DNA of 62,127 bases from a virus (lineage: Duplodnaviria > Caudoviricetes), in IMG/VR virus record IMGVR_UViG_3300026911_000014, positions 1-62,127 of that record. One strand, given 5' to 3'. The first letter of the stretch is position 1. Every line of letters starts with the position of its first letter. Below are positions 9,310-53,339 of the stretch, in pieces. Under the pieces are notes generated by a model. The model made no database searches. It saw nothing but the letters and a program-made list of their open reading frames with translations, and was not told the DNA's origin. The translations under genes were made by a program, and so were the position numbers.

Positions 9310-9330
9310 AATAATTACTAACTTTAAAGC

Positions 9331-9546: not shown

Positions 9547-9552
9547 TCCATA

Positions 9553-10585: not shown

Positions 10586-10596
10586 TATGTATAATT

Positions 10597-13639: not shown

Positions 13640-13711
13640 CGATACGTTGTTTTACTATAATGCCAATATAATTGGCTCAATATCCTAACTTTAGCCAAAG
13701 AATCAATTTCA

Positions 13712-36875: not shown

Positions 36876-37274
36876 TTAATTTTCTCTAAACCAGTCAACA
36901 ATGGCTTGAAGATTCTCTTTCATAAGCTCAAAGGGGGGACAAAAAATGGTTTTTGGAAGGGTACTATCCTTGGCTACCGCAGTTGCCAACACATTTTTAA
37001 AAACGTTAGTGGTATTAGAGAATAGAGGGTATAGTTCGTCTGCTGTTAGGCTTCCATCAGTGTGAATATGATGGAGGAACTCCATATAAGCAATAGTATA
37101 TTTTGATCGTTCGGCAATGTTAGTACCTTGAACAACTGGAGTGATTTGCAGAAAAAGAAGATTTCCAGATTTTTCTTTTTTAATATCAAAAAGGTATTCG
37201 CAATCTGGATTTTTAAAAAGGGGGATATCAAATTTAGGTTGCCCGATTTGTGGAGTTTTAATACTCAGAATCAT
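36876..37274 (-). CDS. Hypothetical passenger protein
   Basis: ORF with an A-rich leader. Confidence 0.6.
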   Translation of the reverse strand: MILSIKTPQIGQPKFDIPLFKNPDCEYLFDIKKEKSGNLLFLQITPVVQGTNIAERSKYTIAYMEFLHHIHTDGSLTADELYPLFSNTTNVFKNVLATAVAKDSTLPKTIFCPPFELMKENLQAIVDWFREN

Positions 37275-37335
37275 GTTTTATTTTTTGATTGTTTATAAAT
37301 GAGTGCCCTTTCTGCTTCCAACAGGAGGGCATTTT

Positions 37336-37761
37336 TCATATTCTTTCTACATAATACAAGTAGGTTTTGTCTGGGTATTCGATAATGAAGGCTGCATAAT
37401 GAGGGGCTTTCTCGGATTCGTATATTTTTTGGCTGATTTTGCACTTAACTTGTTTAAAATCAGATGCCCAGAAGGTATAAGTCGCCACACTATCTTGTTC
37501 AAAGGCTTCTATTGGTTTTCCTATAAGGTGATATACCTGGAGGGAGGGCGAGTGGATATAAAGAACGGAGCTATCCATATCGAACTCTACGGGCATATTC
37601 TTTAGATTCTTGATTTCTGGCGGATCTACCACTTGATTCTGATACTTAGTGCATATAAATTGGGAAGCTGTAAAACGGTACAATTGAGCGATACAATGAT
37701 TCGCCAATAGTATAAAAACTGCTATTAATGTATAGATTCTCTTTTTTGAAGTAGAAGGCAT
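37336..37761 (-). CDS. Secreted hypothetical passenger protein
   Basis: Signal peptide ...KKRIYTLIAVFILLANHCIA/Q. Confidence 0.65.
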   Translation of the reverse strand: MPSTSKKRIYTLIAVFILLANHCIAQLYRFTASQFICTKYQNQVVDPPEIKNLKNMPVEFDMDSSVLYIHSPSLQVYHLIGKPIEAFEQDSVATYTFWASDFKQVKCKISQKIYESEKAPHYAAFIIEYPDKTYLYYVERI

Positions 37762-37772
37762 AGATATTATTA

Positions 37773-38255
37773 TTAGCTAGTGGCATATTTTTCATCATGA
37801 TTAGCCATTATATAATAACTCCATATTGGGAATATAAAACAACTTATCAGTAGAAATAAATCCAATATAGATTTTGCATCTTTTTGGGATGCATCATAAG
37901 GGGTAAATACTTTTTCTGTTTCTGTAGTCTCTCCATTTTCCCACTTTGTGGTATACGAATATGATTTTGTTTGACCAGCCATAATTTTCTCGCAAATAAA
38001 AGCTGATGCGCGTTGACGACTAAAAAATAAAATCAACCCGCATAAAACGGTCAAATAAAAACCAGCGTGCTTAATAGTTCGATTAGATAAGGAAAATGAA
38101 TTAATGCTAAATCCCTTTAAAAGAATGCAGGTAATTGGCGTCAAGATTAACAGAGATAAATAAACATAGGGGAGCAGAAAAAGAGCGCACATTATGACAC
38201 AGACAATGCCAGCCATAATAAATCCTAAGATGTAATCTTTAATACTTTGAAACAT
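37773..38255 (-). CDS. Multi-pass membrane passenger protein
   Basis: About four hydrophobic segments. Confidence 0.6.
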   Translation of the reverse strand: MFQSIKDYILGFIMAGIVCVIMCALFLLPYVYLSLLILTPITCILLKGFSINSFSLSNRTIKHAGFYLTVLCGLILFFSRQRASAFICEKIMAGQTKSYSYTTKWENGETTETEKVFTPYDASQKDAKSILDLFLLISCFIFPIWSYYIMANHDEKYATS

Positions 38256-38297
38256 GGTAAATGATTAAATAGCCCATCGTCCCTAAATGGCGGTATT

Positions 38298-38450
38298 AAA
38301 AAAATTTGCGTGGGACATTAGCCACTCAGGATCAAGAGGTACTAGCAATACCCGACGTTCCATGAAATGACTAAAGCCCACGCATTGCGTGAGCGATCAG
38401 TCTGAGTTTCGTTGGAACGTTAAAGGAAAGTGCTAGTTTTCTTGATCCCG
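38298..38450 (-). ncRNA. c4/CI-like antisense-attenuator RNA
   Basis: tgcgtggg/cccacgca closing stem with U-tail; three internal segments complementary to upstream leader segments. Confidence 0.5.
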
Positions 38451-38600
38451 GAAATCAGCTAAACGCTAATTATATGTAAGGACAAATGTTAGGATAAACA
38501 CTTTATCCGGGGGAGCTCTTGTTAATTCTCATATCTGGCGATATTTTGCGTTAATAAATTACGTTGCTTTACAAAGAACGATAAAATAGTAGAAATAGTG

Positions 38601-38678
38601 AAGCGGCAACTGTTCTCTTTCCGCCAACGCAGGGAATCGCCAGAGTCCCGTAGACAGATTGAGGGGTTGCCGCTTTTT
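38601..38678 (+). ncRNA. Structured RNA / terminator
   Basis: Perfect 10-bp stem aagcggcaac/gttgccgctt enclosing 55 nt, followed by a T-run. Confidence 0.4.
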
Positions 38679-38917
38679 AGTTAAATCAGGCCATTAGGAG
38701 GATAAACCCACCTCTCAATAGGACGAAATGGGATTACGTTTTCACTAAGTAATTGAGAAGTAACCCAAAGGAATAGAAAATAGCCGACAAGGACAATACG
38801 GGCAACTACTTATTTAACCTGTAGCCTTAAAGGGCTAAAAAAGGGTGTTTTAACGGTATGGGTGAAAGTTCTTTTGAATTATCTTTCGATTCTTAAAGTT
38901 AACTTTCGCATCATAAA

Positions 38918-39451
38918 ATGAAAGAGGCCATTGATTTATATGCTAAAATCGTAATCGCTATGTTTAGCTTCATTGGCCCTTCTTTTACTCTTTTGATTGC
39001 TTTATTTGTTCCTGCCATAGAAAGGTCAAAAATTAGACATAAATCAAGAATGAGTACCTTGCAGGAGATTATATCTAAAAATATTGTAGAGGGAACCAAT
39101 TTTGAAGCTATGGTTTCCACTGGGAAAGAACAGTTAGATAAATTACAAAAGACTAATAAAAAGGAACTTACGTTTTTGAATCCCAAAATTCAGGTGAAGA
39201 GGTTGTCGTTTGGGTTGGTTCTTTCTATAATTGGGATCGAATTTTATTATTTTGAACATTCTCAGTTTTGGCATTGGGCATCTCCCTGGTGGAAGATAGG
39301 AGTGCTATTAATAAGTGCGGGAGGATTCGTATATTGTATATATGTTCTTTGGCAGTTATTTTGCACTATTATACGGATAAAGACAGAGGATGAAACGACC
39401 AAACAAGAAGGGATCAAACCACAAGTTAATCCCTCTATAAATACACAATAA
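38918..39451 (+). CDS. Membrane passenger protein (3 TM)
   Basis: Hydrophobic segments separated by a coiled-coil region. Confidence 0.65.
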   Translation: MKEAIDLYAKIVIAMFSFIGPSFTLLIALFVPAIERSKIRHKSRMSTLQEIISKNIVEGTNFEAMVSTGKEQLDKLQKTNKKELTFLNPKIQVKRLSFGLVLSIIGIEFYYFEHSQFWHWASPWWKIGVLLISAGGFVYCIYVLWQLFCTIIRIKTEDETTKQEGIKPQVNPSINTQ

Positions 39452-39771
39452 TGAGCACTTTTAAAGTCATACAAATACTAAGTGCCAATACCATCCGCGT
39501 CGCTCCCGGATGGACAGTTGCTATAAATGGGGAATCATTTGAAGACGATAAAGTAAGAATTTCTGGACTAAAGGTAGATCCTACCAATGCATATGTCCAG
39601 CATCGATTGACTTCCTTTCTTTTACAGAAAGGGGTTGAACTTATCAACGCGACACTTATTCCGAATGTTGATTTTGTCGGAGCAAAAATATCTTGCGATG
39701 TTATTTTGGATGGGACAAACATCACTTATTATTTCCCTGAATTTAGGGAAGGTTTAAAGGTTACGGGATAA
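39451..39771 (+). CDS. Thermonuclease (SNase)-like OB-fold protein lacking catalytic residues
   Basis: FKVIQILSANTIRV...VRISGL...LLQKGV...CDVILDG follows the SNase pattern, but DGDT, DAPE and GR are replaced. Confidence 0.5.
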   Translation: MSTFKVIQILSANTIRVAPGWTVAINGESFEDDKVRISGLKVDPTNAYVQHRLTSFLLQKGVELINATLIPNVDFVGAKISCDVILDGTNITYYFPEFREGLKVTG

Positions 39772-39780
39772 CTTTCCCAA

Positions 39781-40014
39781 TCACCTAAGAGTAAGAACAA
39801 ACTCTTGGTTATCAAACTCCACCTTAGAAGAAATCCCCTTTTCCGCGTACTGAGCTAAGAGGAACCGAGCAAATTCCTTGTTTATCGGCGACTGAAGCCA
39901 TTCTTCCCCTATCTCTACTCTTATAGACCATTGTCTTGTAGGAGCCCAATAGCGAAGATGGGTAATACGGGCTATCTTCTCCGCCCTTTTCTTTTTAAAT
40001 AGTGATTTAAACAT
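39781..40014 (-). CDS. Hypothetical protein
   Basis: ORF divergent from the transposase. Confidence 0.5.
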   Translation of the reverse strand: MFKSLFKKKRAEKIARITHLRYWAPTRQWSIRVEIGEEWLQSPINKEFARFLLAQYAEKGISSKVEFDNQEFVLTLR

Positions 40015-40135
40015 AGACCTCTAACCTAAGAGATCTTGAAGAGTATGCTTTACGGAAAGCCGTAATTAGGTGTAGTTAATCCTTTTTAACAATTTAAAAT
40101 TAGGCAGAATCGTGGACAAGATATATCTTAGAGCC

Positions 40136-41101
40136 ATGGTAAAGAACATGAAAGAGTTGGCTAAGAAATTTCCCGACGAGGCGAGCTGCCGGGCATTTTT
40201 AGTTGAATACCGCTGGAATGGTGTTCCGACATGCCCTTACTGTAATTGTCCGAGATCCTATGCCATTGAGGGAGGAAAGCGGTTTAAATGCGCCAATAAG
40301 GAGTGCTTCAAAAAGTATAGTGTACTGATGGGAACGCCAATGGAAGGGAGCAATATTCCATTAACCACATGGTTCTTAGCTATATATATGATGACGGCCC
40401 ATAAAAAGGGGATAAGCTCTTGTCAATTAGCCAGAAATGTAGGAGTAACGCAGAAAACAGCTTGGTTTATGCTTATGCGCATCCGGGAAATGCTTCGGGA
40501 AAAGGCTCCCCTCCTCCTGGAAGGAGAAGTGCAAGCTGACGAATGCTATATAGGAGGATCAGAGAGCAATAAACACAAGGATAAGCAGGCAGCCAACAGG
40601 GAAGAGGCCGCAGCCAAGAAAATGCCCGTAGTAGGTCTCCTTCAAACTAAAGGCCCCTTGATATTAAAGGCTATGCCATGGGTTGCCAAAAAAGAGGTTG
40701 AAGACTTTGTTCTTGCCCACGTAAAGACAGCCTCAACTTTTGTAACAGACGGCCTCACATTATATAATAAAGTGGGCAAAAAGATGAACCACATCGTAGT
40801 GGACACTAGAATTTCGAACAAAACCAAGGGGAAGCACAAAAATGGCATAGAAAACGCTTGGAGGCACTTCCGTCTTTGTATTGACGGCACCTACCATAGC
40901 GTCAGCGATGAGCACATGCAACGATACTGTGAGGAATTCTGTTATAGGTTTAATAGCCGGCATCTGTCTGATGGATTCAGATTTTGCCTAACTTTCCATC
41001 AAATGGAAGGTCGATTGACCTACAAACAACTCACAGATCATGGCCAAGACGAAAAAAGAGAAAACGGCACCCCCTTCTACCCCATCGAAACGGGCGAGTA
41101 A
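40136..41101 (+). CDS. IS1595-family (ISXO2-like) DDE transposase
   Basis: Zn ribbon CPYC..CxxxxC, KKGISSCQL, VTQKTAWFM, QADECYIGG, VTDG, NGIENAW and EFCYRFN; likely start ATG 40136. Confidence 0.95.
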   Translation: MVKNMKELAKKFPDEASCRAFLVEYRWNGVPTCPYCNCPRSYAIEGGKRFKCANKECFKKYSVLMGTPMEGSNIPLTTWFLAIYMMTAHKKGISSCQLARNVGVTQKTAWFMLMRIREMLREKAPLLLEGEVQADECYIGGSESNKHKDKQAANREEAAAKKMPVVGLLQTKGPLILKAMPWVAKKEVEDFVLAHVKTASTFVTDGLTLYNKVGKKMNHIVVDTRISNKTKGKHKNGIENAWRHFRLCIDGTYHSVSDEHMQRYCEEFCYRFNSRHLSDGFRFCLTFHQMEGRLTYKQLTDHGQDEKRENGTPFYPIETGE

Positions 41102-41189
41102 GTATGAAAAGAAGGTCAAGATAAAGGGCTCTTTCGAAGATGTCATGAAAGCTATGATGACTCCTCCCCGCCCCCCTAAAGAAAAATAG
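41040..41189 (+). CDS. Small basic peptide overlapping the transposase end
   Basis: MAKTKKEK...KVKIKGSFEDVMKAMMTPPRPPKEK (49 aa), read manually. Confidence 0.5.
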   Translation: MAKTKKEKTAPPSTPSKRASKYEKKVKIKGSFEDVMKAMMTPPRPPKEK

Positions 41190-41192
41190 GAA

Positions 41193-41627
41193 TTGGGAGA
41201 AGTGCCAGAAAATATAACTCATATAGTACAGCCAGATAGATTTTGGTGGAACGTCATTGAGGCGAAAGCGCTTTTTGCCGAGCCAGACATAAATTATTCC
41301 TACCATCCCTATACATTAGTTTTTCAGGAGCCTAATCTTCCCAAGATGATAAAAGTGAGATCATTTATCTATCTGGATATTATTTTGGGCAATTCTCAAC
41401 TCTTAGATGCTGGGGTAGTAACTGATTATGATGTTCACGTAGATAGTATCGGTAATATAATAGACGAACTACTGAGAATAGGAGAGGACGCTCATCTTCG
41501 ATTCCTACAAATATTTAAAGAGCGCAATTCTCCACCATATATTTCTCCCACATTTCAGCCGATTTTGGACCTTGAGGTTTTGGATCAAAAAATCCGACAA
41601 CTTGTCGAGACTGGAGCTTCCTATTAA
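41193..41627 (+). CDS. Hypothetical passenger protein
   Basis: ORF downstream of the transposase, inside the right repeat. Confidence 0.6.
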   Translation: MGEVPENITHIVQPDRFWWNVIEAKALFAEPDINYSYHPYTLVFQEPNLPKMIKVRSFIYLDIILGNSQLLDAGVVTDYDVHVDSIGNIIDELLRIGEDAHLRFLQIFKERNSPPYISPTFQPILDLEVLDQKIRQLVETGASY

Positions 41628-41789: not shown

Positions 41790-42290
41790 ATGGCATTCAG
41801 CGCTAGTTATACAATAACGCCAACGGGAAATCCAGCGGCTTTCACCATTACTGACACTAGTACGGGGTCAGACGGGGCCATCACCGACAGATCTATCCTT
41901 CTCTATACAAGTTCCAATTCTTTATATGTTCCTGCTATAGACTTTCCCCTTTCTGATGGAAGTTCTATAACAATAGCACCATTGACTTCAGATGTTGCTT
42001 TAAATGTAGTCGTTTTATGGAAAGATAGTAGTGGGAATACACTTTATACTGCTAGTCAGATTTTTGCCTTTGTCCAATACGGCCTTCAATTTTTACAGTC
42101 ATTAACACAGACCCAAATATCCAATCCCCTCGTTATTAACGAACAAAGTTGGATTAATAACAAATTCCTTATTTTCTTAGAGATTCAAAGCGCACTAAAT
42201 GCCATTAATATAGGACAATCATTGTATGCAGCTCAGTCTTGCATTCTTAGGTATACTCAAATGATTACAAACCAAAACTTGTATTTCTAA
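41790..42290 (+). CDS. Virion structural protein (tail hub / fibre adaptor candidate)
   Basis: FTITDTSTGSD N-terminus; no signal peptide; precedes the fibre genes. Confidence 0.55.
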   Translation: MAFSASYTITPTGNPAAFTITDTSTGSDGAITDRSILLYTSSNSLYVPAIDFPLSDGSSITIAPLTSDVALNVVVLWKDSSGNTLYTASQIFAFVQYGLQFLQSLTQTQISNPLVINEQSWINNKFLIFLEIQSALNAINIGQSLYAAQSCILRYTQMITNQNLYF

Positions 42291-43156
42291 TGGCATCTGA
42301 GTTTACCATAATACAAATACTTGAATTCGCTCAAATATCTCAATATATATCAGGGAATGATAAGTCCTCTTTGAAACAATTGCAAAGTGGGTCTTTTATA
42401 GGCAATCTTTCTCGATTACTTTATATGGAAGGGACATTGTTGCAAAACTTAAATAGCCTTAATCCGAGTAGTTCTACCTTACGAGGAACAGCCGAATATG
42501 TTCTTTCTCTTTGTGGGAAATACCTATTGCAAGCCCAGAATATTATTAACGGATTAGCGGGGTCCCCTCCAGTTATTTCTGGACCGTCTAATCAAAGTGT
42601 AAATGTAGGTCAAACAGCAACATTCAGCGTTTCGGTAACGGGAACAGCACCATTTACTTATAAATGGTTTTTGAATGGGAATCCAATTATCGGGGCAACA
42701 TCATCTACTTATTGGGTGCCTAATGCTCAATTATCCGATAGCGGAGGTTTGTATTCTGTTCAAGTAACAAATTCTGCGGGGCAAGCCACTAGCAATACTG
42801 CTACTCTTACGGTAACAGCCTCAATACAAGCATTTTGGTATTATGGTTCTGCTGATCCATATCCAGCATTAAGCATGGGAGTAGATAATTTAACCTACCA
42901 GATTAGCCAGTCTATTACACATAATACACCCATTGTAATAACCTATCCCACGGCCGCAGAAAATAATCAATATACCGTATTGAGATACCCTATTACGGAA
43001 AACGCCAAAACTGCTTGGGTAAATACTCAACTCAACCAAGGTCAAATTCCCGATTCCATTATGAGAGCTATTTTTACAATTGGGAATAATCAATATGTGG
43101 TATCGCGTGTAGCTATGAGTTTGGACAGTACCGCATCCACCCTAACATATTCTTAG
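42290..43156 (+). CDS. Virion protein with an Ig-like (I-set) domain
   Basis: PVISGPSNQSVNVGQTATFSVSVTGTAPFTYKW...DSGGLYSVQVTNSAG. Confidence 0.75.
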   Translation: MASEFTIIQILEFAQISQYISGNDKSSLKQLQSGSFIGNLSRLLYMEGTLLQNLNSLNPSSSTLRGTAEYVLSLCGKYLLQAQNIINGLAGSPPVISGPSNQSVNVGQTATFSVSVTGTAPFTYKWFLNGNPIIGATSSTYWVPNAQLSDSGGLYSVQVTNSAGQATSNTATLTVTASIQAFWYYGSADPYPALSMGVDNLTYQISQSITHNTPIVITYPTAAENNQYTVLRYPITENAKTAWVNTQLNQGQIPDSIMRAIFTIGNNQYVVSRVAMSLDSTASTLTYS

Positions 43157-43157
43157 C

Positions 43158-46100
43158 ATGAAGAAATTTATAAGTATATTTTTTTTATTGTGTTTTATTA
43201 AGGGCGTAGCTCAGTATAACCCAGCACTTTTCACTACTACTAATAAAAGTTTAGGCGTAGCGCAAGCTGTAAGTACAGATGCCCGGTCTTGGTTCTATGA
43301 TGCGGCTAATTTTGTGATGAGAGATTACCAATCCGCTAATGAAGTAAACACATATCTTAATCAACCAAAATATAGGAGCGGCCACTTCCCCGTGTACATT
43401 CATCTTGGAGGCACCTTAACTAGTGGAGTATGGTTAGGAGGAACAACCCAAGTTTGGTGGTATCAAAATGGAGTTGCAGACTCTAATTTGGTTAGATGGT
43501 ACACCGATTCTGTTTCAGGAGGACCATTCTTTGCGGTCGCTAACAATCTGTCAGAGGGGAATCCTTCATTAATTAAAACTACCCTTGGCCTAGATAATGT
43601 AGATAATACGTCAGATGCTCAAAAAAATGCAGCAACAGCTACTTTAACTAATAAAACAATTTCAGGGTTAAATAATACCTTTTCAAATATTCCAAATAAC
43701 GCGTTATCCAATAATTCTATTGGATTAACTATAGGGACCTCTGGGATAGATATTGGTGTTACAACAACGCCCGCACAATTGGGAACTAGTTTGGTTTTGC
43801 AAATTCCATCTGCTGGAACTGGATCAAGGGGGGCATTAACTTCGACAGATTGGAATAAATTCAATAACAAATTAGATAGTGTAGTTGTTTCTGGAGACTC
43901 TATTTATGATTGCACTAATGGCACATGCACTTTCAGGGGATTATTTAGTGGAACGGGGGGCATCGCAGTACTGAATGGTCTGAATGCCACTACTCAATCT
44001 TTTGCTACAGGGACTAGTGGCTCAGATTTTAATATTATTTCTGCCGGTAGCACACACACCTTCAACTTACCAGATGCATCCGCTACTACACGAGGATTAC
44101 TTAATTCTACCGATTGGAGTGTATTTAATGCAAAACAAACCCAACTCAATGGGACTGGATTAGTTCGGATGTCTGGGACTACTGTATCCTATGATAATTC
44201 AGTATATTTAACTAATATTACTGGGTTAATTACGGCAGGAACGGGGATATCTATTGGTGGAAGCGGGACTTCTGGATCTCCATATACTATTACTGCCACG
44301 GGAAGCGGAGGTCTATCATTGACCACAACTGGTACGTCTGGTGCTTCTACTCTAACGGGATCAGTGCTCAACATCCCTCAATATCAAGGACAACTTACCT
44401 TAACTACTACAGGATCTTCGGGAGCAGCTACTCTTATAGGAAATACCTTAAATATACCTCAGTATAGTGGAGGGGGAGGGGGAAACACAAACAGTAATAT
44501 AGGATCTGGGTTTAGATGGGCTGTGCCGAATACGAATAACATCAAAACTTTTTTTGTAGTAGGAGGTACATTAGATAGTACAACTAACTCAAATGCTCTC
44601 ACACTAACGATTCCCACCTATCAACCTAATCTGACTAATAGGGGGAGTGGATTTAGGCTCTTTGATCCAACAACTAATGGGATTAAATCTCTAACCTGTA
44701 CTGGTTGTACATTAGACTCTACAACTACAGGTCAAATTGGTATTACAGTTACAGCAGGAGGAAGTGGAACAGTAACCACCGTTAGTGCTGGTAATCTCTC
44801 CCCTCTTTTTACTACTTCTGTAGCTACAGCCACAACAACCCCTGCGCTTACTTTTACGTTAAGCAATGCGACGGCAAATAGTATTTTCGGTAATAACAGC
44901 GGATCTAGTGCTGCGCCATCATTCTTTGTACCCACTGCAACTACCCTTAATACTTGGTTTGGGGGGACTATTCAGGGGGCGTTAACTGTAACAACAACAG
45001 GCACTTCTGGGCCTGCTACTTTAACGGGAACCACATTGAATATCCCTCAGTATTCAGGTGGCGGAGGGAGTGCTGCTGGTCCTTTAAATAGTGTTCAAAT
45101 AGATAGTGCTGGATCGTTTGGGTCAGTCCCTGGATTTTTGGCTACAAGAGCAAATGGTTTTGTACAGGCGACCTTATTTGAAGGCAAACAAGCGGTTTAT
45201 GTAGGAGATACAGCAAGCTCCTTAATTGTTGGAACAGTATTTTCCGATAATTTTAATAGGGCATCTCTTGGGGGCAATTACAATTCTAATCTTACTGGAA
45301 CTGCACTTACCTTCCCATCGTCCTCCTACATGCATGTGGTTGGCGGATCTACAAGTTTCGATAGCTACATAGAAAGAGTTATACCTACTGGATTGAATTT
45401 ACATAGCGATTCGGTCGTGTTTATTCCTCAATCGCTAACCTCATCTGACTTTGGTTTTGGTTTTGGTATGTATTCAAAAAATACAACCTATTCCAGAGGG
45501 TACACTGTTCAGGCTCCAATGTCAACCGGGTTAGCTGGTACAGAGCTTTTTTATACTGACGATGGGACTATCCACACGCAGCAGTATCCGGGGGGGGCTA
45601 TGATTGGGATGTCAGTGGGAGATACTTTGGTGGCTACGGCAACACGTACCGATTCTACCGTTATATTTACTCTTAGGAATAGAGCCACTAATGATGTATT
45701 TACACATACATACCTTTATCCTGCCACGGTTACAACAGGCTCTACCCAATTGTCAAATACTGGGTACTATAGAATGTATTTCTTTGGGGGAACATTCGAT
45801 ATTCTCAATTGGACGGTCTTCTCTCCAGAACACCAACACGGGATAGTTTGGGTGGGGAATAGCATCGAGGCGGGATATGCTGCTACTAATTGGGATGAAA
45901 GGTATTTAAACTTATTATACCCACTGAACAGGGCAATATTTGATGCCCAAGGAGGGCCGGGAGATAAATCAGCCGATGGTCTCGTGGGCGTTCCTTCTTT
46001 ACTTTCACATAATCCAAAGACGGTTGTCATCGCCTTAGGGGTAAATGATAGAGGGACAGGCGTCCCAACAAGCACGTATTCGACCAATATCGACAGCCTG

Positions 46101-48095
46101 ATAAGAGTGTCAATAGCAGCCGGCGCTACGCCTTACCTCCTTGGAAATGCACCTCAAAATTCCGGAGATATTACACCGTATAATGACACATTGATAGCAT
46201 TAGCTGGGAGGTATCACATACAATACATAGACATATTTGATACGCTGGCTAATGGAACAAATTATGCGGATCAGTTTACCGTAGATGGCGTCCATCCAAA
46301 TAGCGCAGGACACGCTGCAATAGCTGCTCAAATAAGACTTCAAGCCCCATCTTTATTAGTGAACCCTCAATTAAGGATGGATAACGCCCAGTCATTATTA
46401 AACGATCCAAATGCTAGGATTGCTCTTTGGAGTCCCACAGCAGGATTTGGGGCAGGTATCCTCTTAAGAGATACTACACCATACGTGAAGCTAAGCCCAA
46501 CTAGCCAGCAAGTAGGGTTTATTAATGTACAGTCGATACAAAATGGGGTTACCCCAGATGGTAATTTACCAAACTGGTTTGTCAATAATAAGCAGAATTA
46601 TGTCAACTTCGGGTTGCAAAATATTTCCGATATAGGGTATTCTGGTTTTGCACTTTATCAAGCCAACAATAATTTAGGAGCAACCATAGCATGGAATAAT
46701 GGGGGTATCACCGGATTGGGCGTAAATGGGCCGAATAATTTTAATATAAGAACTCGAATGGCAGGATCAGGCATAGGCTTAACCGGTGGTGATGGTGGCA
46801 ATAGAGCCACCTCCGATTTTGAAGTAGATTCAGGCCTAATCGTTAACCGGTCAGCAGCCACTTTTCAAACGTTAGCCACTTTTGCGGCAGCGACTACTTC
46901 CACTCCGTCTATTTTATTAACTTCTTCCGGTGGGGTTAATCCAACCACTCCTTCTTCAGGTATGTTGTGGTGGAACGGGACTAACTTGTATTTTAATAAT
47001 GGCAGTGGCAATGTAGATCTTTTGGCTGGTGGAGGTGGTGGAATTTCATTGACTACTACGGGCACTTCAGGCGCTTCTACGTTGACAGGGACTACGCTTA
47101 ATATTCCTCAATATCAAGGGGCGTTAACATTAACAACTTCTGGGACATCTGGAGCAGCTACTCTCAGTGGAAATACCTTAAACATTCCGCAATATAGCGG
47201 CGGAGGGGGCTCTCAAAATTTAGAATCAGTATTGACTACGGGCGCTACCTTAACGAATCCGCATACTATCACCAACACTAGTCAGATATTGTCCTTTACA
47301 GGAGGGTTGTATAAGTTCAATGGATTCTCGGCAGATACGACTAACACCGCCTATATCATAGGAAAGAAAAAGGATAGCTCACTTTATGAAATTCCTTTAT
47401 CTCAATTCTCCTCCTTGTTAGGATCAGATACATTGTTCGCTAATGGTAGTCTTCAGTTAAGCGGGGATACGATCTCTTTAATAGGAGATAACGTAAGTCC
47501 CGGTAACAGTATGTATTATGGCACTAACGCCAGTGGAGTTAAAGGATTTTTCGCGTTAACAGGGGGCGGCACTAATATATATACTTCAGATGGAACTATT
47601 TCTTCTTCGAATAGAACGGTAACGATACCTTCAAATGGGAGCCTTACTTTTCTTGGAAGCGGGGCCGACAATATTAACATAAATGCTGCCCCTTCTGGGA
47701 CGATCACATTAGAAGGGAATGCTATTAATTTACAATCTGGGAACACTGGGGCGGTAGTGGTTACCGGAGGTGTAGCTTTAGGACAAACAGATATAACTAC
47801 AAGCGGAAGCGGGATAGTGGTAGCTATAAATTTTTCTAATTATGCCATTGATCCCGCAAGCGTTATACCAACATACACTATAACACTGCCATCCACGTTG
47901 CCAGATGGATTTATTGCAAATTTCTTTTTTGGAGGAACCATAACATCCGGCACGGTTATAACTACACTTTCGGTAGGAACGAGTGGTGCTACAATAGTTC
48001 AAAATTCGGCTCCAACAACAGCATCTGCTGGAGATTATATATCGTATAAATTTTTTACAAATGGTACAATTAAAAGGTGGTACAGGGTTCATTAG
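43158..48095 (+). CDS. Tail fibre-like protein with SGNH hydrolase domain and N-terminal signal peptide
   Basis: LGLDNVDNTSD fibre motif, Gly/Thr/Ser repeats, SGNH blocks (GNSI, GGPG, LGVND, DGVHP), MKKFISIFFLLCFIKGVA/Q. Confidence 0.8.
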   Translation: MKKFISIFFLLCFIKGVAQYNPALFTTTNKSLGVAQAVSTDARSWFYDAANFVMRDYQSANEVNTYLNQPKYRSGHFPVYIHLGGTLTSGVWLGGTTQVWWYQNGVADSNLVRWYTDSVSGGPFFAVANNLSEGNPSLIKTTLGLDNVDNTSDAQKNAATATLTNKTISGLNNTFSNIPNNALSNNSIGLTIGTSGIDIGVTTTPAQLGTSLVLQIPSAGTGSRGALTSTDWNKFNNKLDSVVVSGDSIYDCTNGTCTFRGLFSGTGGIAVLNGLNATTQSFATGTSGSDFNIISAGSTHTFNLPDASATTRGLLNSTDWSVFNAKQTQLNGTGLVRMSGTTVSYDNSVYLTNITGLITAGTGISIGGSGTSGSPYTITATGSGGLSLTTTGTSGASTLTGSVLNIPQYQGQLTLTTTGSSGAATLIGNTLNIPQYSGGGGGNTNSNIGSGFRWAVPNTNNIKTFFVVGGTLDSTTNSNALTLTIPTYQPNLTNRGSGFRLFDPTTNGIKSLTCTGCTLDSTTTGQIGITVTAGGSGTVTTVSAGNLSPLFTTSVATATTTPALTFTLSNATANSIFGNNSGSSAAPSFFVPTATTLNTWFGGTIQGALTVTTTGTSGPATLTGTTLNIPQYSGGGGSAAGPLNSVQIDSAGSFGSVPGFLATRANGFVQATLFEGKQAVYVGDTASSLIVGTVFSDNFNRASLGGNYNSNLTGTALTFPSSSYMHVVGGSTSFDSYIERVIPTGLNLHSDSVVFIPQSLTSSDFGFGFGMYSKNTTYSRGYTVQAPMSTGLAGTELFYTDDGTIHTQQYPGGAMIGMSVGDTLVATATRTDSTVIFTLRNRATNDVFTHTYLYPATVTTGSTQLSNTGYYRMYFFGGTFDILNWTVFSPEHQHGIVWVGNSIEAGYAATNWDERYLNLLYPLNRAIFDAQGGPGDKSADGLVGVPSLLSHNPKTVVIALGVNDRGTGVPTSTYSTNIDSLIRVSIAAGATPYLLGNAPQNSGDITPYNDTLIALAGRYHIQYIDIFDTLANGTNYADQFTVDGVHPNSAGHAAIAAQIRLQAPSLLVNPQLRMDNAQSLLNDPNARIALWSPTAGFGAGILLRDTTPYVKLSPTSQQVGFINVQSIQNGVTPDGNLPNWFVNNKQNYVNFGLQNISDIGYSGFALYQANNNLGATIAWNNGGITGLGVNGPNNFNIRTRMAGSGIGLTGGDGGNRATSDFEVDSGLIVNRSAATFQTLATFAAATTSTPSILLTSSGGVNPTTPSSGMLWWNGTNLYFNNGSGNVDLLAGGGGGISLTTTGTSGASTLTGTTLNIPQYQGALTLTTSGTSGAATLSGNTLNIPQYSGGGGSQNLESVLTTGATLTNPHTITNTSQILSFTGGLYKFNGFSADTTNTAYIIGKKKDSSLYEIPLSQFSSLLGSDTLFANGSLQLSGDTISLIGDNVSPGNSMYYGTNASGVKGFFALTGGGTNIYTSDGTISSSNRTVTIPSNGSLTFLGSGADNININAAPSGTITLEGNAINLQSGNTGAVVVTGGVALGQTDITTSGSGIVVAINFSNYAIDPASVIPTYTITLPSTLPDGFIANFFFGGTITSGTVITTLSVGTSGATIVQNSAPTTASAGDYISYKFFTNGTIKRWYRVH
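44313..47194 (+). repeat. Five copies of the ~24-aa module LTTTGTSG(A/P)xTLxGxxLNIPQY
   Basis: Two copies at ~44313-44465, one at ~44982-45053 and two at ~47043-47194. Confidence 0.85.
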
Positions 48096-48462
48096 TATGC
48101 TATTGATTATAGTATTGCCAATGGGTTTAAAAGGGCAATCGTTATTTGATATTTATTCTAGACCGTCTAAACTAATATCTAGTAATTATTCTATCTCCCT
48201 ATTCGATGTAACTTTGGTAGTTAACTCTAATTCAGGCAATGACACCCTGACTCTTCCTGCTGGGGCTCAGGCTTATTCATCTGCCAATCAAACCGGATTA
48301 ATATATCATATTAAGAATATAGGGGTAAATAATGTGTATTTAAGAGTGTTCCCTTCTTCTGGAGATTCTATTGAGAGTTCAATATCAATATATTTAATAT
48401 CTCCATCTATGACAAGTAGAGAGGTGCAGCCTGCCACAATTCATAGTTGGTTTGTTCATTAG
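48061..48462 (+). CDS. Small fibre-associated protein with signal peptide
   Basis: FISMLLIIVLPMGLKG/Q; TLTLPA..G.IYHIKNIG fibre-tip-like motif. Confidence 0.6.
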   Translation: MVQLKGGTGFISMLLIIVLPMGLKGQSLFDIYSRPSKLISSNYSISLFDVTLVVNSNSGNDTLTLPAGAQAYSSANQTGLIYHIKNIGVNNVYLRVFPSSGDSIESSISIYLISPSMTSREVQPATIHSWFVH

Positions 48463-48480
48463 CATAAAAAATCAATATTC

Positions 48481-48900
48481 ATGTTGCATAAATTTGGGTG
48501 GGTATTATTTTTAGGAGCCGTCGCATTTGGATTTATAGTTCATTCGTTTGATCAGCAAACTTTGTACTATAATAAAAGTGGTCAAATTAAAAAGCAAATA
48601 AGGGTATGGAATGATACTGTATCCGTATCTGCTGCTTCACCTACTATAGACATATCTAGTGCCGGGTTTTCAAATATCATAGACATTCAGCCACAGATAA
48701 TTCAAAACGCATCTACTTTAACCAACTTCGCGTGGTGTAATGTAAAGTCATATACCACTACATCGGTTACCTTAAATTTAGCTCAACAAAACAATAACAC
48801 AATAACCATATTGGGAATATCGGTATTGTCGGGATCTCCTATTGCCCCACCTACTGGGTTTTCTGGAACTTTTGTTTCATTAAGGGTAACTGGAAATTGA
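48481..48900 (+). CDS. Small beta-rich protein with N-terminal signal/TM segment
   Basis: MLHKFGWVLFLGAVAFGF followed by a beta-sandwich-like body. Confidence 0.6.
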   Translation: MLHKFGWVLFLGAVAFGFIVHSFDQQTLYYNKSGQIKKQIRVWNDTVSVSAASPTIDISSAGFSNIIDIQPQIIQNASTLTNFAWCNVKSYTTTSVTLNLAQQNNNTITILGISVLSGSPIAPPTGFSGTFVSLRVTGN

Positions 48901-50588
48901 AAATCCTTTTAACTATACTGCTTAACATACCGTTGCTACTCTGTGGGCAACGGCATTTTACTTTCTTCCCTGGAGAGTATCTGAATCAAATGGTGGATAA
49001 TACCACGCATAAATTGTATACTATAAATACAACTGCATCATTGGTGGGTGGTGTTCCAGATAGTATAACTGGTGGATGTAGCGGAGCGCATCATATGTTG
49101 TCCCTATCTTCCAATGGACGTGTGTATGCCTTCGGTGATGATACGAATGGGGAGCTAGGGGATGGCGGAAGCGGTGTTGGCGGATTAATATTAACGGATA
49201 GTTTAGGTAACCCGTTCAGAAATGTAGTTCAGGTTTCTTGTGGCGGCACTGCTGGGGGGTGGAATAGCATGGCGCTTAAATCAGACGGGACGGTTTGGGC
49301 ATGGGGGGCCCTAGATGGAGGCTTGCGAGGGAATAACACACACGGCGGACAAGCCAATCGACCGGTACAAATTCCATTTCCGGGAGGAACGTTCATTAAG
49401 CAAGTATATTTGTCCTTTATAGGGTTAGCATTGGATAACACTGGGCATGTGTGGACATGGGGTGGGGAGTATTCTTTTCACGCCCCTTATGTACTGGCTC
49501 AAGGAACGCCCACTCCTAATATATACAACCCTACACAGCTTAATAGCAGCGTATTTGGGGGTGAGCAAATAAAAACTATAGTAGGGGGGGGCAATAACAT
49601 GCAGTACGCCATAACTGCTACGGGCAAAGTATATGCTTGGGCGTTTTATGCGCACTATATCGCCATCCCTGACGGAGATATGTCAGTCACTGGGTTCAAC
49701 CCTTGGCATATCGATACGGCCTTGAATCTCCCCCATCCAGTGGATACAATGGTTGTAAATGATATCGCCACATACGCTATTCTCAGCGATTCCTCACTGT
49801 GGGCATGGGGTGATTGTCCCGTAGGCAACTTCGGCAATGGGACTACCTTAGATATGCGACATTATCATTCAGCAGATGGGGCATATACACCTTATGGATG
49901 GGATCAAGGTATCGACGAGAACATGCAACTAAAGCCGGTAAATGTAGCCCCCGGAAAGCACGACTTTACCCAGATATTCGCCTCCCCGCAATTAGCTTTT
50001 TACATCCAATGTAGTGATGTAAACGATCGTTATTATTTCGCTGGAAGGAATAAGGGCGGTATAGCTTGTAATGGGATCAATGGCATAGACTCGGTTGGCG
50101 GAGATTTAGGAGCTATGTATCCAGACTCATGGGATCAGCCGTATCTGCAGCAAATATATCCGATGGGCACCCGCGTGAATAGAACTACATGCCCGCTATT
50201 CAAAGATACGACGGGAGCCGTCTTACAGAGCACATATCCTCTTAATACCTCAGGATCTCCACCGGTAGCAAATGCGGGCAGCAATCAGACGGTTAATACA
50301 ACGACAGCGACTTTAAAAGGTAGTTTTACCTATACTTCCCCGTCCCGCGGAATGATCAATAGAATGTGGACGAAAATTTCTGGTCCCAATACCCCTCAAA
50401 TCCCAATAGTAAACGCAGATACGGTGAGCGTATTAGGATTGACAAAAGGCACCTACGTATTCAATTATGCCATTATGGACAATAATTTTAAAACGGCGTC
50501 CGCAAACGTCACAGTAACAGTAACCGCCGCCTGCCCTAATTGTGTCATTCGTCAAAGAGGCAAAAAGCACAGATTTATAAGCCTTTAA
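48897..50588 (+). CDS. Secreted RCC1/BLIP-II repeat beta-propeller + PKD/Ig domain protein
   Basis: NGRVYAFGDDTNGELGDG, ALKSDGTVWAWG and SLWAWG repeats; PPVANAGSNQTV; signal MKILLTILLNIPLLLCG/Q. Confidence 0.8.
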   Translation: MKILLTILLNIPLLLCGQRHFTFFPGEYLNQMVDNTTHKLYTINTTASLVGGVPDSITGGCSGAHHMLSLSSNGRVYAFGDDTNGELGDGGSGVGGLILTDSLGNPFRNVVQVSCGGTAGGWNSMALKSDGTVWAWGALDGGLRGNNTHGGQANRPVQIPFPGGTFIKQVYLSFIGLALDNTGHVWTWGGEYSFHAPYVLAQGTPTPNIYNPTQLNSSVFGGEQIKTIVGGGNNMQYAITATGKVYAWAFYAHYIAIPDGDMSVTGFNPWHIDTALNLPHPVDTMVVNDIATYAILSDSSLWAWGDCPVGNFGNGTTLDMRHYHSADGAYTPYGWDQGIDENMQLKPVNVAPGKHDFTQIFASPQLAFYIQCSDVNDRYYFAGRNKGGIACNGINGIDSVGGDLGAMYPDSWDQPYLQQIYPMGTRVNRTTCPLFKDTTGAVLQSTYPLNTSGSPPVANAGSNQTVNTTTATLKGSFTYTSPSRGMINRMWTKISGPNTPQIPIVNADTVSVLGLTKGTYVFNYAIMDNNFKTASANVTVTVTAACPNCVIRQRGKKHRFISL

Positions 50589-50713: not shown

Positions 50714-51022
50714 ATGGAACCATCTGTATGGGCAAAAATTCAATCGTTCCTCAGAGAATGCTTTAAAGAAAAATTTAAAATCTTTTTTCCGGGCTCTTTG
50801 TTGGGGCTGTTCGCTGGCAAGTCTCTTTTATTTTCTGGACTTCCTGCTGAGCTCGTTACATTTGGAGCGTATTTGCTCAAATTTGTGGGCACTGTTTTGA
50901 TGGCAGTAGCTTCTGGAGCTGCTACCACCTATGGAGCAAAGTGGGTAGAGAAAAAATTGTCCCCAAATGAAAAAAAAAGTCCAGACCCAATAAAAAAAGG
51001 AAGAAACAAAAACGCAGCATAA
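50714..51022 (+). CDS. Holin-like membrane protein
   Basis: Two TM segments, basic C-terminal tail, upstream of the endolysin. Confidence 0.5.
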   Translation: MEPSVWAKIQSFLRECFKEKFKIFFPGSLLGLFAGKSLLFSGLPAELVTFGAYLLKFVGTVLMAVASGAATTYGAKWVEKKLSPNEKKSPDPIKKGRNKNAA

Positions 51023-51150
51023 TGTCAACAACGAATGGACCCGAAAAACCGCAACCGCCTAAACCAAGTATTCCGAAGCCTAAGCCGGATGATGCGCCGG
51101 ATAGCGGCCCCCTTCCTGGCGGCCCAATCCAACCTCCGCCGCCTCACTAG
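51022..51150 (+). CDS. Proline-rich 42-aa peptide
   Basis: TAATG coupling to the previous stop; MSTTNGPEKPQPPKPSIPKPKPDDAPDSGPLPGGPIQPPPPH. Confidence 0.5.
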   Translation: MSTTNGPEKPQPPKPSIPKPKPDDAPDSGPLPGGPIQPPPPH

Positions 51151-51568
51151 GTGGATCAAAGAAATCGTAGCCATTAGCATAGCCGCTAGGTTAATCACCT
51201 ATTCGGCTATGTTTCTTAGCTGGGTATCTAAGCCGTTGGCAGAAAGAATTGTTGATCCATTCTTGTGTCCGTGGTATTCCAATCCGATGAAATTAAAATG
51301 GTTCATTTACTATTGTAGTCAGGATTTGGCATGGGTATTCTCTAGTTATGCATTTTGTAAATGTGCTGTTAGGTTGAGCGACTATCTTTTTCTGGTATCT
51401 ATAATATTATTAGGCTATCAACTGATTGACGCGTTTATGTTATTCTGGAATTTTAAGCAGTCTAATTTAATATACCTAGATCTTATGTGGACCGTATTGG
51501 CATTTATTTCTTCTGTTTTTAAAGGGTATAAACCAGAAACAGTAGCACGCGTCAAATCTCTTTTTTAA
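51035..51568 (+). CDS. Multi-pass membrane protein (true start uncertain)
   Basis: About four TM segments; the Arg-rich N-terminus overlaps the Pro-rich ORF. Confidence 0.55.
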   Translation: MDPKNRNRLNQVFRSLSRMMRRIAAPFLAAQSNLRRLTRWIKEIVAISIAARLITYSAMFLSWVSKPLAERIVDPFLCPWYSNPMKLKWFIYYCSQDLAWVFSSYAFCKCAVRLSDYLFLVSIILLGYQLIDAFMLFWNFKQSNLIYLDLMWTVLAFISSVFKGYKPETVARVKSLF

Positions 51569-51586
51569 TTGCTAAAATCTAATTAT

Positions 51587-52012
51587 ATGCAGAAAGTAAA
51601 ACAATTCCTAATAGATAATAAAGTGTTTCTATTCGGTATTTTATCAGCAGCTATTATAACAGTTCAGCAACTAGCCACATCTTACCCCAAAGACTATAGA
51701 CTGTTTATCTTAGCTGCGTTCTTTGCTGGTATATCTTATTCCGCTCGTAATTTAAGAGGACAATGGGGGTCTATCCTAGGGTCTTTAATCCCGTCATTGG
51801 GGATTGCCTTAAATAACATGGAGACTCATACGCCCATTAGTTGGTTTTCTCTTGCAGGAGCGGCAGCCTTGGCAGTAATGGGGGTTATAGCACCCCCCGC
51901 CAAGAGTTTGTCGTACGAGACTACACCTGAAATTACAGCGGCCAAGCAGGATGCGGCTAAGGCAGATGCTGCTGCTGAACCACCAAAGAACCCTCCTGTC
52001 TCTGTCAAGTAA
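51587..52012 (+). CDS. Holin-like membrane protein
   Basis: Four hydrophobic segments; lysis-module position; ATG at 51587. Confidence 0.55.
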   Translation: MQKVKQFLIDNKVFLFGILSAAIITVQQLATSYPKDYRLFILAAFFAGISYSARNLRGQWGSILGSLIPSLGIALNNMETHTPISWFSLAGAAALAVMGVIAPPAKSLSYETTPEITAAKQDAAKADAAAEPPKNPPVSVK

Positions 52013-52028
52013 ACATAAAATATACATC

Positions 52029-52514
52029 ATGAAATTTAAACTGCTTTTAATCTCGATCTTATTTGTAGGAAATATCGACGCTCAATCTCTTTGGCACGGC
52101 CTGCCTCCATATAAAGCCCCTCAAAAATTCAATACCTTTGAGCGAATCGTATTGCCAACAGATACCCTTCCCTCCATCTCGACAAATAAATGGAACGGAT
52201 TACGCCTAGCAGGCCCCGATGTAATGGCGGCCCTTCCTGATTTTACCCTCTACACAGGCGTAGGCATAGATTATGTCTGGGCAACAGCCAATACGGCAAC
52301 AGGCAAATGGGATTACGACTATACAATAGGCCTTCGTGTGGTTGGTGGTGCGAATCTACCTAGTCCGGGAAGTGTGAAGACGGTGGGAGGATTTGGCGCA
52401 AGAGCAACATTCTTTAAAGGATTGTTAGCCGTAGGTGCGATTTATAACCTGACACTAAAGAAACCGCAATTTGCAGTAGGTAATCCTGCCGCTTTGATCC
52501 CCGGATTAAACTAA
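52029..52514 (+). CDS. Secreted amphipathic beta-strand protein
   Basis: MKFKLLLISILFVGNIDA/Q; alternating strands (GVGIDY, YTIGLRV, GFGARATF, AVGAIY). Confidence 0.6.
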   Translation: MKFKLLLISILFVGNIDAQSLWHGLPPYKAPQKFNTFERIVLPTDTLPSISTNKWNGLRLAGPDVMAALPDFTLYTGVGIDYVWATANTATGKWDYDYTIGLRVVGGANLPSPGSVKTVGGFGARATFFKGLLAVGAIYNLTLKKPQFAVGNPAALIPGLN

Positions 52515-52694: not shown

Positions 52695-53339
52695 ATGACC
52701 ATAGCATTTGCTCCAGCCGGGTCTCGTGGATTTGACTGTAATCAGCCGTTATCTCGCTCTCAGGCTATGATGTTTGCAGAAGCTGGATATTCCTTTTGTA
52801 TCAGATATCTGCCTCGTACATCATCCTTACTTAACGGGAATCTAACAATCGTAGAAATACAGTCTATTCTTGCTGCTAATTTAAGCCTAATGGCCGTCCA
52901 GCATTGCCCACTCCCAAATTGGAAGCCTACGGGACTGTTGGGGACTCAATACGGCCAATATGCTGGCCAATATGCCTCCGAAATAGGCCTGCCGCAAGGG
53001 ATTAATTTATGGCTGGATTTAGAAGAAGTGGCTGCTGAATCAAGCGATCAAGATGTAATTGACTATTGTAATAACTGGGCTGTAGAGGTATCGGGTCATG
53101 GGTATATCCCTGGATTATATGTTGGGTATCATCCCGGTCTTTCCAATGATCAATTATACTTCGATCTGTCTATTAAACATTATTGGCGAGCATATAATGC
53201 AGATAACGAGATATCAACAAGAGGGTATCAACTTGTTCAGCACCCACAGCAGAAACTAGACAACATTGCTTTTGATCCAAACACTACTCAAATCGACAAA
53301 ATGGGAGATTCGGTCATTTGGTTGTCCCCGGGCAAATAA
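52695..53339 (+). CDS. Endolysin, DUF1906 / GH25-like muramidase
   Basis: RGFDC, GYSFCIRYL, LWLDLE and GYIPGLYVG motifs. Confidence 0.85.
   Translation: MTIAFAPAGSRGFDCNQPLSRSQAMMFAEAGYSFCIRYLPRTSSLLNGNLTIVEIQSILAANLSLMAVQHCPLPNWKPTGLLGTQYGQYAGQYASEIGLPQGINLWLDLEEVAAESSDQDVIDYCNNWAVEVSGHGYIPGLYVGYHPGLSNDQLYFDLSIKHYWRAYNADNEISTRGYQLVQHPQQKLDNIAFDPNTTQIDKMGDSVIWLSPGK

Follow-up and report, generated by a model that had tools for sequence, protein, structure and literature searches.

A phage tail-fibre module with conserved signal peptides and O-glycosylation motifs suggests fibre maturation in the periplasm of Bacteroidota

How could a tail fibre that begins with a signal peptide become part of a tailed phage, when the particles of such phages are, to our knowledge, taken to be assembled entirely in the cytoplasm? 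The question is raised by the IMG/VR record IMGVR_UViG_3300026911_000014, a single contig of 62,127 bp that comprises the whole phage contig and was analysed at its full length (the window). At positions 43158..48095 of its plus strand it encodes a fibre-like protein of 1645 amino acids (aa), and a preceding sequence-only reading had proposed that the surrounding module is built for Sec export, host O-glycosylation and disulfide folding, with the receptor-binding fibres maturing in the periplasm and meeting the virion at or after lysis. Our analysis leans moderately towards a related view, namely that the protein is a periplasm-matured, glycosylated receptor-binding tail fibre with an SGNH esterase, belonging to a short-tailed-type Bacteroidota phage and joining the particle upon holin opening. 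Directly computed are the leader and its conservation, the glutamine that follows it, an export-specific sequon excess, the gene order and the fibre-like build.

The classical signal peptide and the phage-fibre motif LGLDNVDNTSD, on which the question turns, are indeed both present in the open reading frame (ORF), the latter at aa 143-153 (43584..43616, plus strand). The protein begins with MKKFISIFFLLCFIKGVAQYNP, the first 18 residues of which (43158..43211, plus strand) form a signal-peptide-like leader made up of MKK, FISIFFLLCFI and KGVA, followed by Gln19. The start, MKKFISIFFLLCFIKGVA-QYNP, hence displays a positive n-region, an 11-residue hydrophobic core, glycine at -3, alanine at -1 and glutamine at +1, features of Sec/signal peptidase I (SPI) substrates combined with the residue of the Bacteroidetes Q-rule, as laid out in parts of PMC5837995 and PMC10653852. 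MKK ahead of the hydrophobic core moreover predicts an N-in/C-out topology. A leaderless isoform from a downstream start was considered and rejected, the next Met being residue 54, inside the conserved N-terminal domain (N-domain).

Leaders were called with a heuristic of our own, complemented by conservation across homologues. In the window, 12 of the 75 ORFs were leader-like, three of which (DnaB 2568, 56138 and the multi-pass membrane protein 37773) were discounted as leaders, and a small residue followed by Gln occupies the predicted site in six ORFs, 4680, 37336 (minus strand), 43158, 48061, 48897 and 51951 (from the internal ATG at 52029). The heuristic called no leader in the portal, capsid, 1304-aa and 1977-aa proteins. 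Two of the six, at 4680-5147 and 37336-37761 (minus strand), are small proteins outside the fibre module that carry a classical leader and Gln at +1 and have no Pfam match.

We then considered how widely the fibre leader is kept. A word-indexed search with the whole fibre detected 699 relatives at E<=0.001 among 7999 scored, the best 120 of which are listed, and an exhaustive profile-free search with aa 1-240 detected 1718 cluster representatives at E<=0.001, 555 at <=1e-10 and 111 at <=1e-30, the best 150 being listed. The 202 distinct proteins from both listings make up the homologue set, in which the N-domain (aa 19-125; 43212..43532, plus strand), which ends in a conserved sequon, D117-S-V, was assigned by BLASTP. 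It is present in 162 of the 202 relatives and lies at the extreme N-terminus in all 162, with 0 internal placements. In 146 of these a strictly defined leader precedes it, charged and hydrophobic, 17-38 residues long (median 20) and terminating in A, G, S, T or C and then Gln; within this group, position -1 is A, G or S in 142 and position -3 is G, A, S, V or T in 139. A further nine (P0008, P0015, P0024, P0041, P0048, P0066, P0082, P0090 and P0137) show by eye a leader with G/Q or N/Q, missed by the strict test because an alignment offset masks the junction, three (P0069, P0170 and P0196) have cut leaders that still end in ..GQ, ..AQ or ..SQ, and four (P0019, P0156, P0166 and P0168) have none. 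Export is thus strongly backed by the computation, the proposed signal being retained together with Gln(+1) in about 155 of the 162 homologues. While Gln19 is invariant in a 14-row alignment (A1), the truly leaderless N-domain copies begin M-S/A-Y/I-N-P and have lost the Gln along with the leader. Gln therefore goes with the leader, not with the fold, and judged from these sequences the joint loss would be the expectation of the Q-rule, not that of a structural role of Gln.

A second line of evidence is provided by the sequon D-S/T-(A/I/L/V/M/T), the motif of the Bacteroidota general O-glycoproteins, which are likewise non-cytoplasmic (parts of PMC12871550 and PMC8550257). These are, however, host proteins, and the review PMC12871550 does not once use the word 'phage'. 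Passages of that review describe the motif as above chance in non-cytoplasmic Bacteroidota proteins and the periplasm as the site of glycosylation, with sites that are nearly fully occupied and an engineered motif that becomes glycosylated. Measured against composition-preserving shuffles of each protein, the fibre has 17 sequons where 6.6 are expected (17 being reached in 0 of 1000 shuffles), the RCC1-like protein encoded downstream 7 versus 1.9 (p 0.004) and the lipoprotein 57322 6 versus 1.9 (p 0.01), as compared to 6 versus 4.1 (p 0.23) in the 1304-aa protein, 2 versus 4.4 in the 1977-aa protein and 0 in the capsid protein. The hand counts of the sequence-only reading (fibre 17, RCC1 7, capsid 0, 1304-aa protein 6) were hence exact, and in this comparison with cytoplasmic virion proteins the excess is confined to leader-bearing ORFs: summed over the window, nine leader-bearing ORFs hold 37 sequons versus 12.4 expected and all others of at least 100 aa 28 versus 32.6.

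The pattern extends to the relatives. Across the mature parts of 161 leader-bearing relatives of at least 500 aa we counted 2163 sequons against 833 expected (2.6-fold, per-protein median 2.59), with a ratio above 1 in 158 and above 2 in 128 of the 161, and with the first 260 residues of the mature parts disregarded the median is still 2.42. The 34 relatives in which no leader was called, which share the shaft repeats and have the starts of ordinary fibres, contain 224 versus 257 (0.87-fold); without the five N-domain members whose leaders are cut or offset, only 4 of 29 have a ratio above 1, and the median is 0.46. The two groups differ at p = 4e-15 (Mann-Whitney), a value that is no true probability as the rows are related. 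Long leaderless fibres with the N-domain are similarly unenriched, with 4 versus 9.5 in P0019 and 3 versus 3.2 in the fibre of locus L053 (described below). Control motifs in the leader-bearing set remain at 0.55 (E-[ST]-x), 0.95 (N-[ST]-x), 0.98 (reversed), 0.65 (D-[ST] followed by other residues) and about 1.19-1.20 (D-[AG]-x). The D117-S-V column of the alignment holds a sequon in 37 of 65 rows. Finally, in nine related loci the ORFs with leader and Gln sum to 202 sequons versus 66.5, one false call included (the L050 homologue of gp42290), and the other ORFs to 87 versus 82.7. The sequon excess is thus tied to export and specific to the leader-bearing fibres, and under the motif rules of PMC12871550, as given in the passages cited above, an exported fibre with 17 sequons should be heavily glycosylated. 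The absence of the excess from leaderless relatives and from control motifs lends the proposed O-glycosylation strong computational backing.

The outliers among the other ORFs of these loci are envelope proteins, namely an anchored RCC1 protein and lysis-cassette proteins with an anchor or lipobox-like Cys. The latter, of 217-225 aa and with an N-terminal anchor or lipobox-like Cys, are found at L046:14713-15366, L048:19508-20185, L051:17967-18641 and L052:18588-19256. They display the densest load seen, 6-9 sequons versus 0.7-0.9, no homologue being detected in the window, and may be glycosylated, spanin-like proteins.

Could the leader nevertheless be idle? The virion pool of the fibre might skip Sec export and fold and assemble in the cytoplasm, the N-terminus then acting as a transient membrane tether or being clipped off by a phage protease and the sequon excess having a structural cause. 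All known tail parts of tailed phages assemble in the cytoplasm, and a chain of 1645 aa is a demanding Sec substrate. For capsid proteins of Porphyromonas gingivalis phages, predicted 'signal peptides' have moreover been suggested to be cut by the prohead protease (a passage of PMC10367356). However, the invariant junction of small residue and Gln is the signature of host SPI and the Q-rule and is lost together with the leader, the MKK start predicts N-in/C-out, and leaderless fibres of similar composition show no such excess, nor do the reversed motif (0.98) or E-S/T-x (0.55), which argues against a structural cause. We deem an unused leader very unlikely.

Is the exported protein then a virion fibre? 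C-terminal to the N-domain, a candidate docking domain, it continues with the fibre motif, which is widespread, a shaft of recurring units (NIPQY at aa 405, 432, 628, 1315 and 1342), an SGNH/GDSL esterase domain at aa 899-1059 (45852..46334, plus strand; PF13472, 1.4e-18, 68.5 bits versus a cut-off of 32.9) and a variable C-terminal part. GNS (aa 900-902), GVND (961) and DGVH (1043) represent SGNH blocks in the fibre, which we take to be catalytic blocks I, III and V. The distal domains differ among the relatives, including PF13472 SGNH, PF12708 pectate-lyase-3, PF03629 SASA, PF19264, PF26696 and others. The protein thus resembles ordinary cytoplasmic fibres and tailspikes in its conserved N-terminal part, NVDNTSD-type motif, shaft repeats, swapped esterase or lyase domains and lysis-gene neighbours, whereas the leaderless fibres (L053, P0019, Elemovirus and phi38:1) start MAYNPS.., MSYNPS.. 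or MARIKNT.. and have neither leader nor sequon excess. AlphaFold2 modelled the core of the N-domain with a predicted local distance difference test (pLDDT) of ~90, the N-terminal model of the fibre reaching 76.6 overall, and a fold search of this model against the PDB returned no match at E<1. The motif peptide DNVDNTSD with its surroundings retrieved fibre-like ORFs from 33 loci of IMG/VR and from 11 genome loci. Loci that share just the generic NVDNTSD motif, Saccharibacteria metagenome-assembled genomes (MAGs) included, are not N-domain relatives and were left out of all counts. In the genome contigs L034-L044, the NVDNTSD region also matches proteins of Saccharibacteria and other candidate-phyla MAGs, to which the N-domain family is unrelated.

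Directly upstream of the fibre gene lie gp41790 (166 aa; 41790..42290, plus strand), the companion upstream of the fibre in relatives (homologues with 31-52% identity), and gp42290 (288 aa; 42290..43156, plus strand), the stop of which is 1 nt ahead of the fibre start; neither has a leader. A three-helix N-terminal part, an immunoglobulin (Ig)-like domain at aa 93-177 (Pfam I-set, 7.5e-10) and a beta-sandwich C-terminal part compose gp42290, whose AlphaFold2 model has a pLDDT of 89.6. Its family counts 339 detected homologues, mostly of 285-292 aa, and the leader heuristic flagged 1 of 120, a false call, so that no real leader is present. Many of the homologues stem from contigs equal in length to fibre-bearing ones. 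Fold matches in the PDB and BFVD, among them Hoc, decoration and tail proteins, owe their scores to the Ig domain and leave the N- and C-terminal domains unassigned, while the modelled protein as such fits a virion-surface protein. For gp41790, Pfam, PHROGs and NCBIfam gave no family match and the protein atlas just sub-threshold Ig/PKD-like leads; nor did either protein match an adaptor family in those three collections. With no informative match for gp41790 and Ig-only matches for gp42290, the label 'tail adaptor' given to them earlier is a guess. A complex prediction of both with the fibre N-domain (aa 20-135), entered as alignments and run with no controls, scored 0.00 and bears neither way on binding.

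An N-domain relative was identified in ten IMG/VR loci (L045-L054). Nine of these, on contigs of 21-79 kb (L045-L052 and L054), have a gp41790 homologue immediately ahead of the fibre N-domain, accompanied by a gp42290 homologue in eight (it is absent from the ORF list of L049, although a contig of equal length holds a family member of 287 aa), a homologue of the 1977-aa giant protein further upstream in eight (all but L051) and, by BLAST, a gp35761 homologue in six (none in L047, L051 and L054). Eight of the nine have a complete fibre ORF with leader and Gln, the L047 fibre being cut by the contig end. The order giant protein-gp35761-gp41790-gp42290-fibre is hence kept in most related loci. 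L053, the tenth, is a different, siphovirus-type phage with head-tail adaptor, Neck1, major tail and tape-measure-like genes (PHROGs), in which the N-domain protein (776 aa) stands at the end of the tail module, starts MAYNPS and has no in-frame upstream start codon. The N-domain accordingly heads a tail fibre whether exported or not.

Leader-bearing structural proteins do exist in a cultured phage, phi18:3 on Cellulophaga baltica. Its gp085, gp086 and gp087 bear the note 'structural protein', an annotation from experimental tandem mass spectrometry (MS/MS) proteomics that presumably goes back to Holmfeldt et al. 2013. They start with MKNKITIIMILMSISFGYS-Q (..GYS/Q), MKKTIYILSILLLTISGVSA-Q (..VSA/Q) and MKHTFSIVLFFILSIGLNA-Q (..LNA/Q), respectively, and none of nine other phi18:3 MS/MS structural proteins that we translated has a leader (KC821620.1). 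This distantly related Bacteroidota podovirus (Pachyviridae; portal ~22% identical) encodes the three consecutively (8892-14584), just upstream of small membrane proteins and a glycosyl hydrolase, which resembles the arrangement in the window, although they are shorter (547-785 aa). The modular build, the conserved place after structural genes, the leaderless L053 homologue and the phi18:3 annotation together support the earlier assignment of the 1645-aa protein as a putative virion fibre.

The leader and sequon evidence would fit equally well if the exported, glycosylated products stayed off the particle, the fibre-like esterase and the RCC1-like protein acting in the periplasm or being released at lysis, either as receptor-destroying or matrix-modifying enzymes that would stop progeny from adhering to debris or as a superinfection block. 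An SGNH esterase could remove acetyl groups from surface glycans, the relatives of the RCC1-like protein are ordinary secreted Chitinophagaceae proteins, and a lipoprotein of the window (57322) is related to the C-terminal part of the L050 fibre. There is also precedent. Pantoea stewartii WceF is an exported, trimeric tailspike-like glycan enzyme that has no virion role, differing from the fibre in being a bacterial gene with a Tat signal and no phage docking domain (as far as the relevant part of PMC7949094 describes it). P. gingivalis phages encode SPI substrates with Gln at +1, understood in a portion of PMC10367356 as fit to the host secretion system; these are five function-unknown genes that the authors propose to be host-envelope modifiers, and not a fibre family. 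On the other hand, a conserved N-domain, then long shaft repeats and then exchangeable distal domains is an architecture that belongs to docked fibres and not to free enzymes, the same N-domain heads the leaderless L053 protein in tail-fibre position, and the fibre gene stands in close linkage with the genes of two leaderless, conserved proteins and with the structural block. Furthermore, the window proteins scanned include no second fibre-like receptor-binding candidate, the phi18:3 proteins with leader and Gln are annotated as virion proteins, and a lytic-type genome would devote ~8% of its length to an accessory enzyme. An off-particle role is therefore, in our estimation, a possible but distinctly less probable explanation than a virion fibre.

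That the proteins serve as adhesins displayed on infected or lysogenic cells, offered as an alternative by the sequence-only reading, we judge highly improbable. The proteins are predicted to be exported, and Ig-, PKD- and RCC1-type domains are common in surface adhesins, but a route across the outer membrane is missing. In Pfam and NCBIfam, neither the fibre nor the RCC1-like protein shows the C-terminal sorting domain of the type IX secretion system (T9SS; PF18962 / TIGR04183 type) that is carried by bacterial RCC1 relatives. The fibre also lacks a lipobox, its sole leader Cys (..FLLC-F..) lying within the h-region, 7 residues ahead of Gln. In addition, no integrase or lysogeny gene was detected among the proteins scanned, the scans taking in part of the ORFs.

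Disulfide folding, the third proposed property, fared less clearly. The four Cys of the mature fibre do come in close pairs, C252-x4-C257 and C514-x2-C517, and across the 161 fibres Cys are clustered, with 243 of 780 neighbour gaps at <=12 aa versus 53.9 +/- 6.6 at random. An even/odd test gave 66 fibres with even counts, 85 with odd and 10 with none; the clustering thus stands, while an even-number bias does not show, and disulfide folding of the fibre is weakly supported by these sequences.

In the reading that we favour, of a virion fibre matured in the periplasm, the very hydrophobic leader would route the chain across the inner membrane through Sec, and SPI would cleave after ..GVA, exposing Gln19 for conversion to pyroglutamate by a host glutaminyl cyclase; the proteins encoded after the fibre would be made as Sec substrates and matured in the same manner. 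The host general O-glycosylation system would then add glycans at up to 17 fibre sequons in the periplasm, where the fibre would fold. Meanwhile, the cytoplasm would be the site where heads and tails are assembled, along with gp41790 and gp42290, neither of which has a leader. Opening of the inner membrane by the holin would let the two pools mix, and the fibre would dock to the particle through its N-domain while the envelope breaks down or before. That joining occurs at or after lysis is something we purely infer.

Several observations weigh against this reading. The leader calls are heuristic. The fibre and its family are known from computation on sequences, virion presence being an analogy to phi18:3, the MS/MS annotation of which may include co-purifying free protein; gp085-087 moreover share no detectable sequence similarity with the window module and are sequon-poor (1 versus 2.9-3.7 expected each). 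It follows that glycosylation is no general companion of exported phage fibres and that export and sequon loading are separable. The fibres of the related podoviruses Elemovirus and phi38:1 are leaderless, and export is hence not required for this virion type. A tblastn search of 50,697 GenBank phage records returned no match to the fibre at 1e-5, and thus no isolate homologue there. The host and its glycosylation system are presumptive, Cys counts have no even-number bias, and docking after membrane opening would compete with dilution at lysis.

Filamentous phages are non-tailed, are extruded at the membrane and have no cytoplasmic capsid to join. Their coat proteins are virion proteins with signal peptides that employ the host export machinery (according to part of PMC4823517). 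In the full texts searched, with most subscription journals and supplements outside their scope, no Sec-exported or host-O-glycosylated tailed-phage fibre is described, and the nearest published statement, as far as the passage in PMC10367356 goes, is the remark on Q-rule proteins of P. gingivalis phages. Nor did the same literature yield any comment on the leaders of the phi18:3 proteins.

The genes downstream of the fibre had been described as starting with signal-like segments as well. Hydrophobic leaders are found in all three, and those at 48061 and 48897 end in a small residue and Q, while 48481 has no clear cleavage site. The first (48061..48462, plus strand; alternative ATG 48097 just after the fibre stop) encodes a small protein with the leader ..GLKG/Q and 2 sequons versus 0.4, and had no family match in Pfam, PHROGs and NCBIfam. 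The second (48481..48900, plus strand), also small, has the hydrophobic N-terminus MLHKFGWVLFLGAVAFG, likely a signal anchor rather than a cleaved leader. The third (48897..50588, plus strand) is the RCC1-like beta-propeller and PKD protein of 563 aa, with the leader ..LLLCG/Q and 7 sequons. Six related loci encode a homologue of it after the fibre gene, with a leader in five and with an anchor-like N-terminus in L050. Leader and Gln are present in 34 of the 53 top homologues examined, the closest phage-type ones having 7-12 sequons versus ~1.7. The bacterial relatives (Puia sp.) are secreted and carry the T9SS domain PF18962, whereas the phage copies do not.

Lysis genes follow, all on the plus strand. 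A holin-like small membrane protein with two hydrophobic segments and a charged C-tail (50714..51022) has homologues beside the lysis genes of L051 and L052, and two multi-pass membrane proteins are encoded at 51035-51568 and 51569-52012, the former with homologues in L046, L051 and L052; no family match was obtained for the proteins at 50714 and 51035-52012. An exported protein of 161 aa (52029..52514, an internal start of ORF 51951) has the leader MKFKLLLISILFVGNIDA/Q (..NIDA/Q) and a 58% identical homologue in L045. The endolysin-like protein at 52695..53339, with an Rv2525c-like glycoside hydrolase domain (PF08924, 6.5e-22) and a 56% identical homologue in L054, has no leader and would need holin holes in the inner membrane. 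Further downstream, 57322-59064 encodes the lipoprotein of 580 aa, with a lipobox-like leader (..LILSC) and the 6 sequons versus 1.9 given above. It is the best match in the window to the distal part of the L050 fibre (26% over 524 aa), and a fibre-type domain deployed as a lipoprotein is a candidate receptor mask or superinfection block.

With regard to the genome as a whole, nearly all genes lie on the plus strand, and the portal (phrog_6547, 5.7e-49), a capsid-type 'virion structural protein' (phrog_13704, 3.7e-20) and the 1304-aa structural protein (phrog_14478, 3.1e-51), all matched in PHROGs, indicate a tailed phage, which also encodes a DnaB helicase (ORF 2568). The closest cultured phages are Flavobacteriia podoviruses (Flavobacterium Elemovirus and Cellulophaga, Maribacter and Tenacibaculum phages), with identities of merely 21-25%, and the capsid protein had no tblastn match at 1e-5 in the same 50,697 GenBank phage records. 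The giant protein of 1977 aa (29831-35764), for which all but one of the nine related loci encode a homologue, contains a histidine-phosphatase domain at aa 1021-1091 (PF00300, 3.8e-21) and is probably the counterpart of the giant structural proteins of Elemovirus and phi18:3. A block of small genes of ~5 kb (36876-41627), some of them on the minus strand, with an IS1595-type transposase (40112-41101), splits gp35761 from gp41790, which are adjacent in the six related loci having both. The transposase is nearest to Ferruginibacter and other Chitinophagaceae copies (44-45%), the RCC1-like protein has relatives in Puia sp. and one fibre-repeat relative comes from Sediminibacterium; on these grounds the host is probably a member of the Chitinophagaceae. 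Near the start of the window, a protein with DUF5672 and glycosyltransferase family 9 (heptosyltransferase-like) domains (5835-7358) is followed two genes later by a methyltransferase-like protein (7922-8560). The two could change the host lipopolysaccharide or the glycan put on exported phage proteins.

Whether the arrangement extends to a large clade of Bacteroidota tailed phages, with heads and tails made in the cytoplasm, secreted, pyroglutamate-capped and host-O-glycosylated recognition gear, and fitting at the time of holin opening, we consider an evenly balanced matter. If such two-compartment assembly is true, it would represent a new assembly route, the last step of which depends on the timing of lysis, and a bacterial counterpart of the maturation of envelope glycoproteins in eukaryotic viruses. 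Host-made glycans would then decorate the very component that determines host range, where they could shield the fibre from proteases or from host-like recognition, and producing such fibres in the E. coli cytoplasm would leave them misfolded or unmodified. Pipelines that count a signal peptide against the label 'virion protein' would mislabel them, while the Q-rule together with the sequon may serve as markers of Bacteroidota phages in host prediction.

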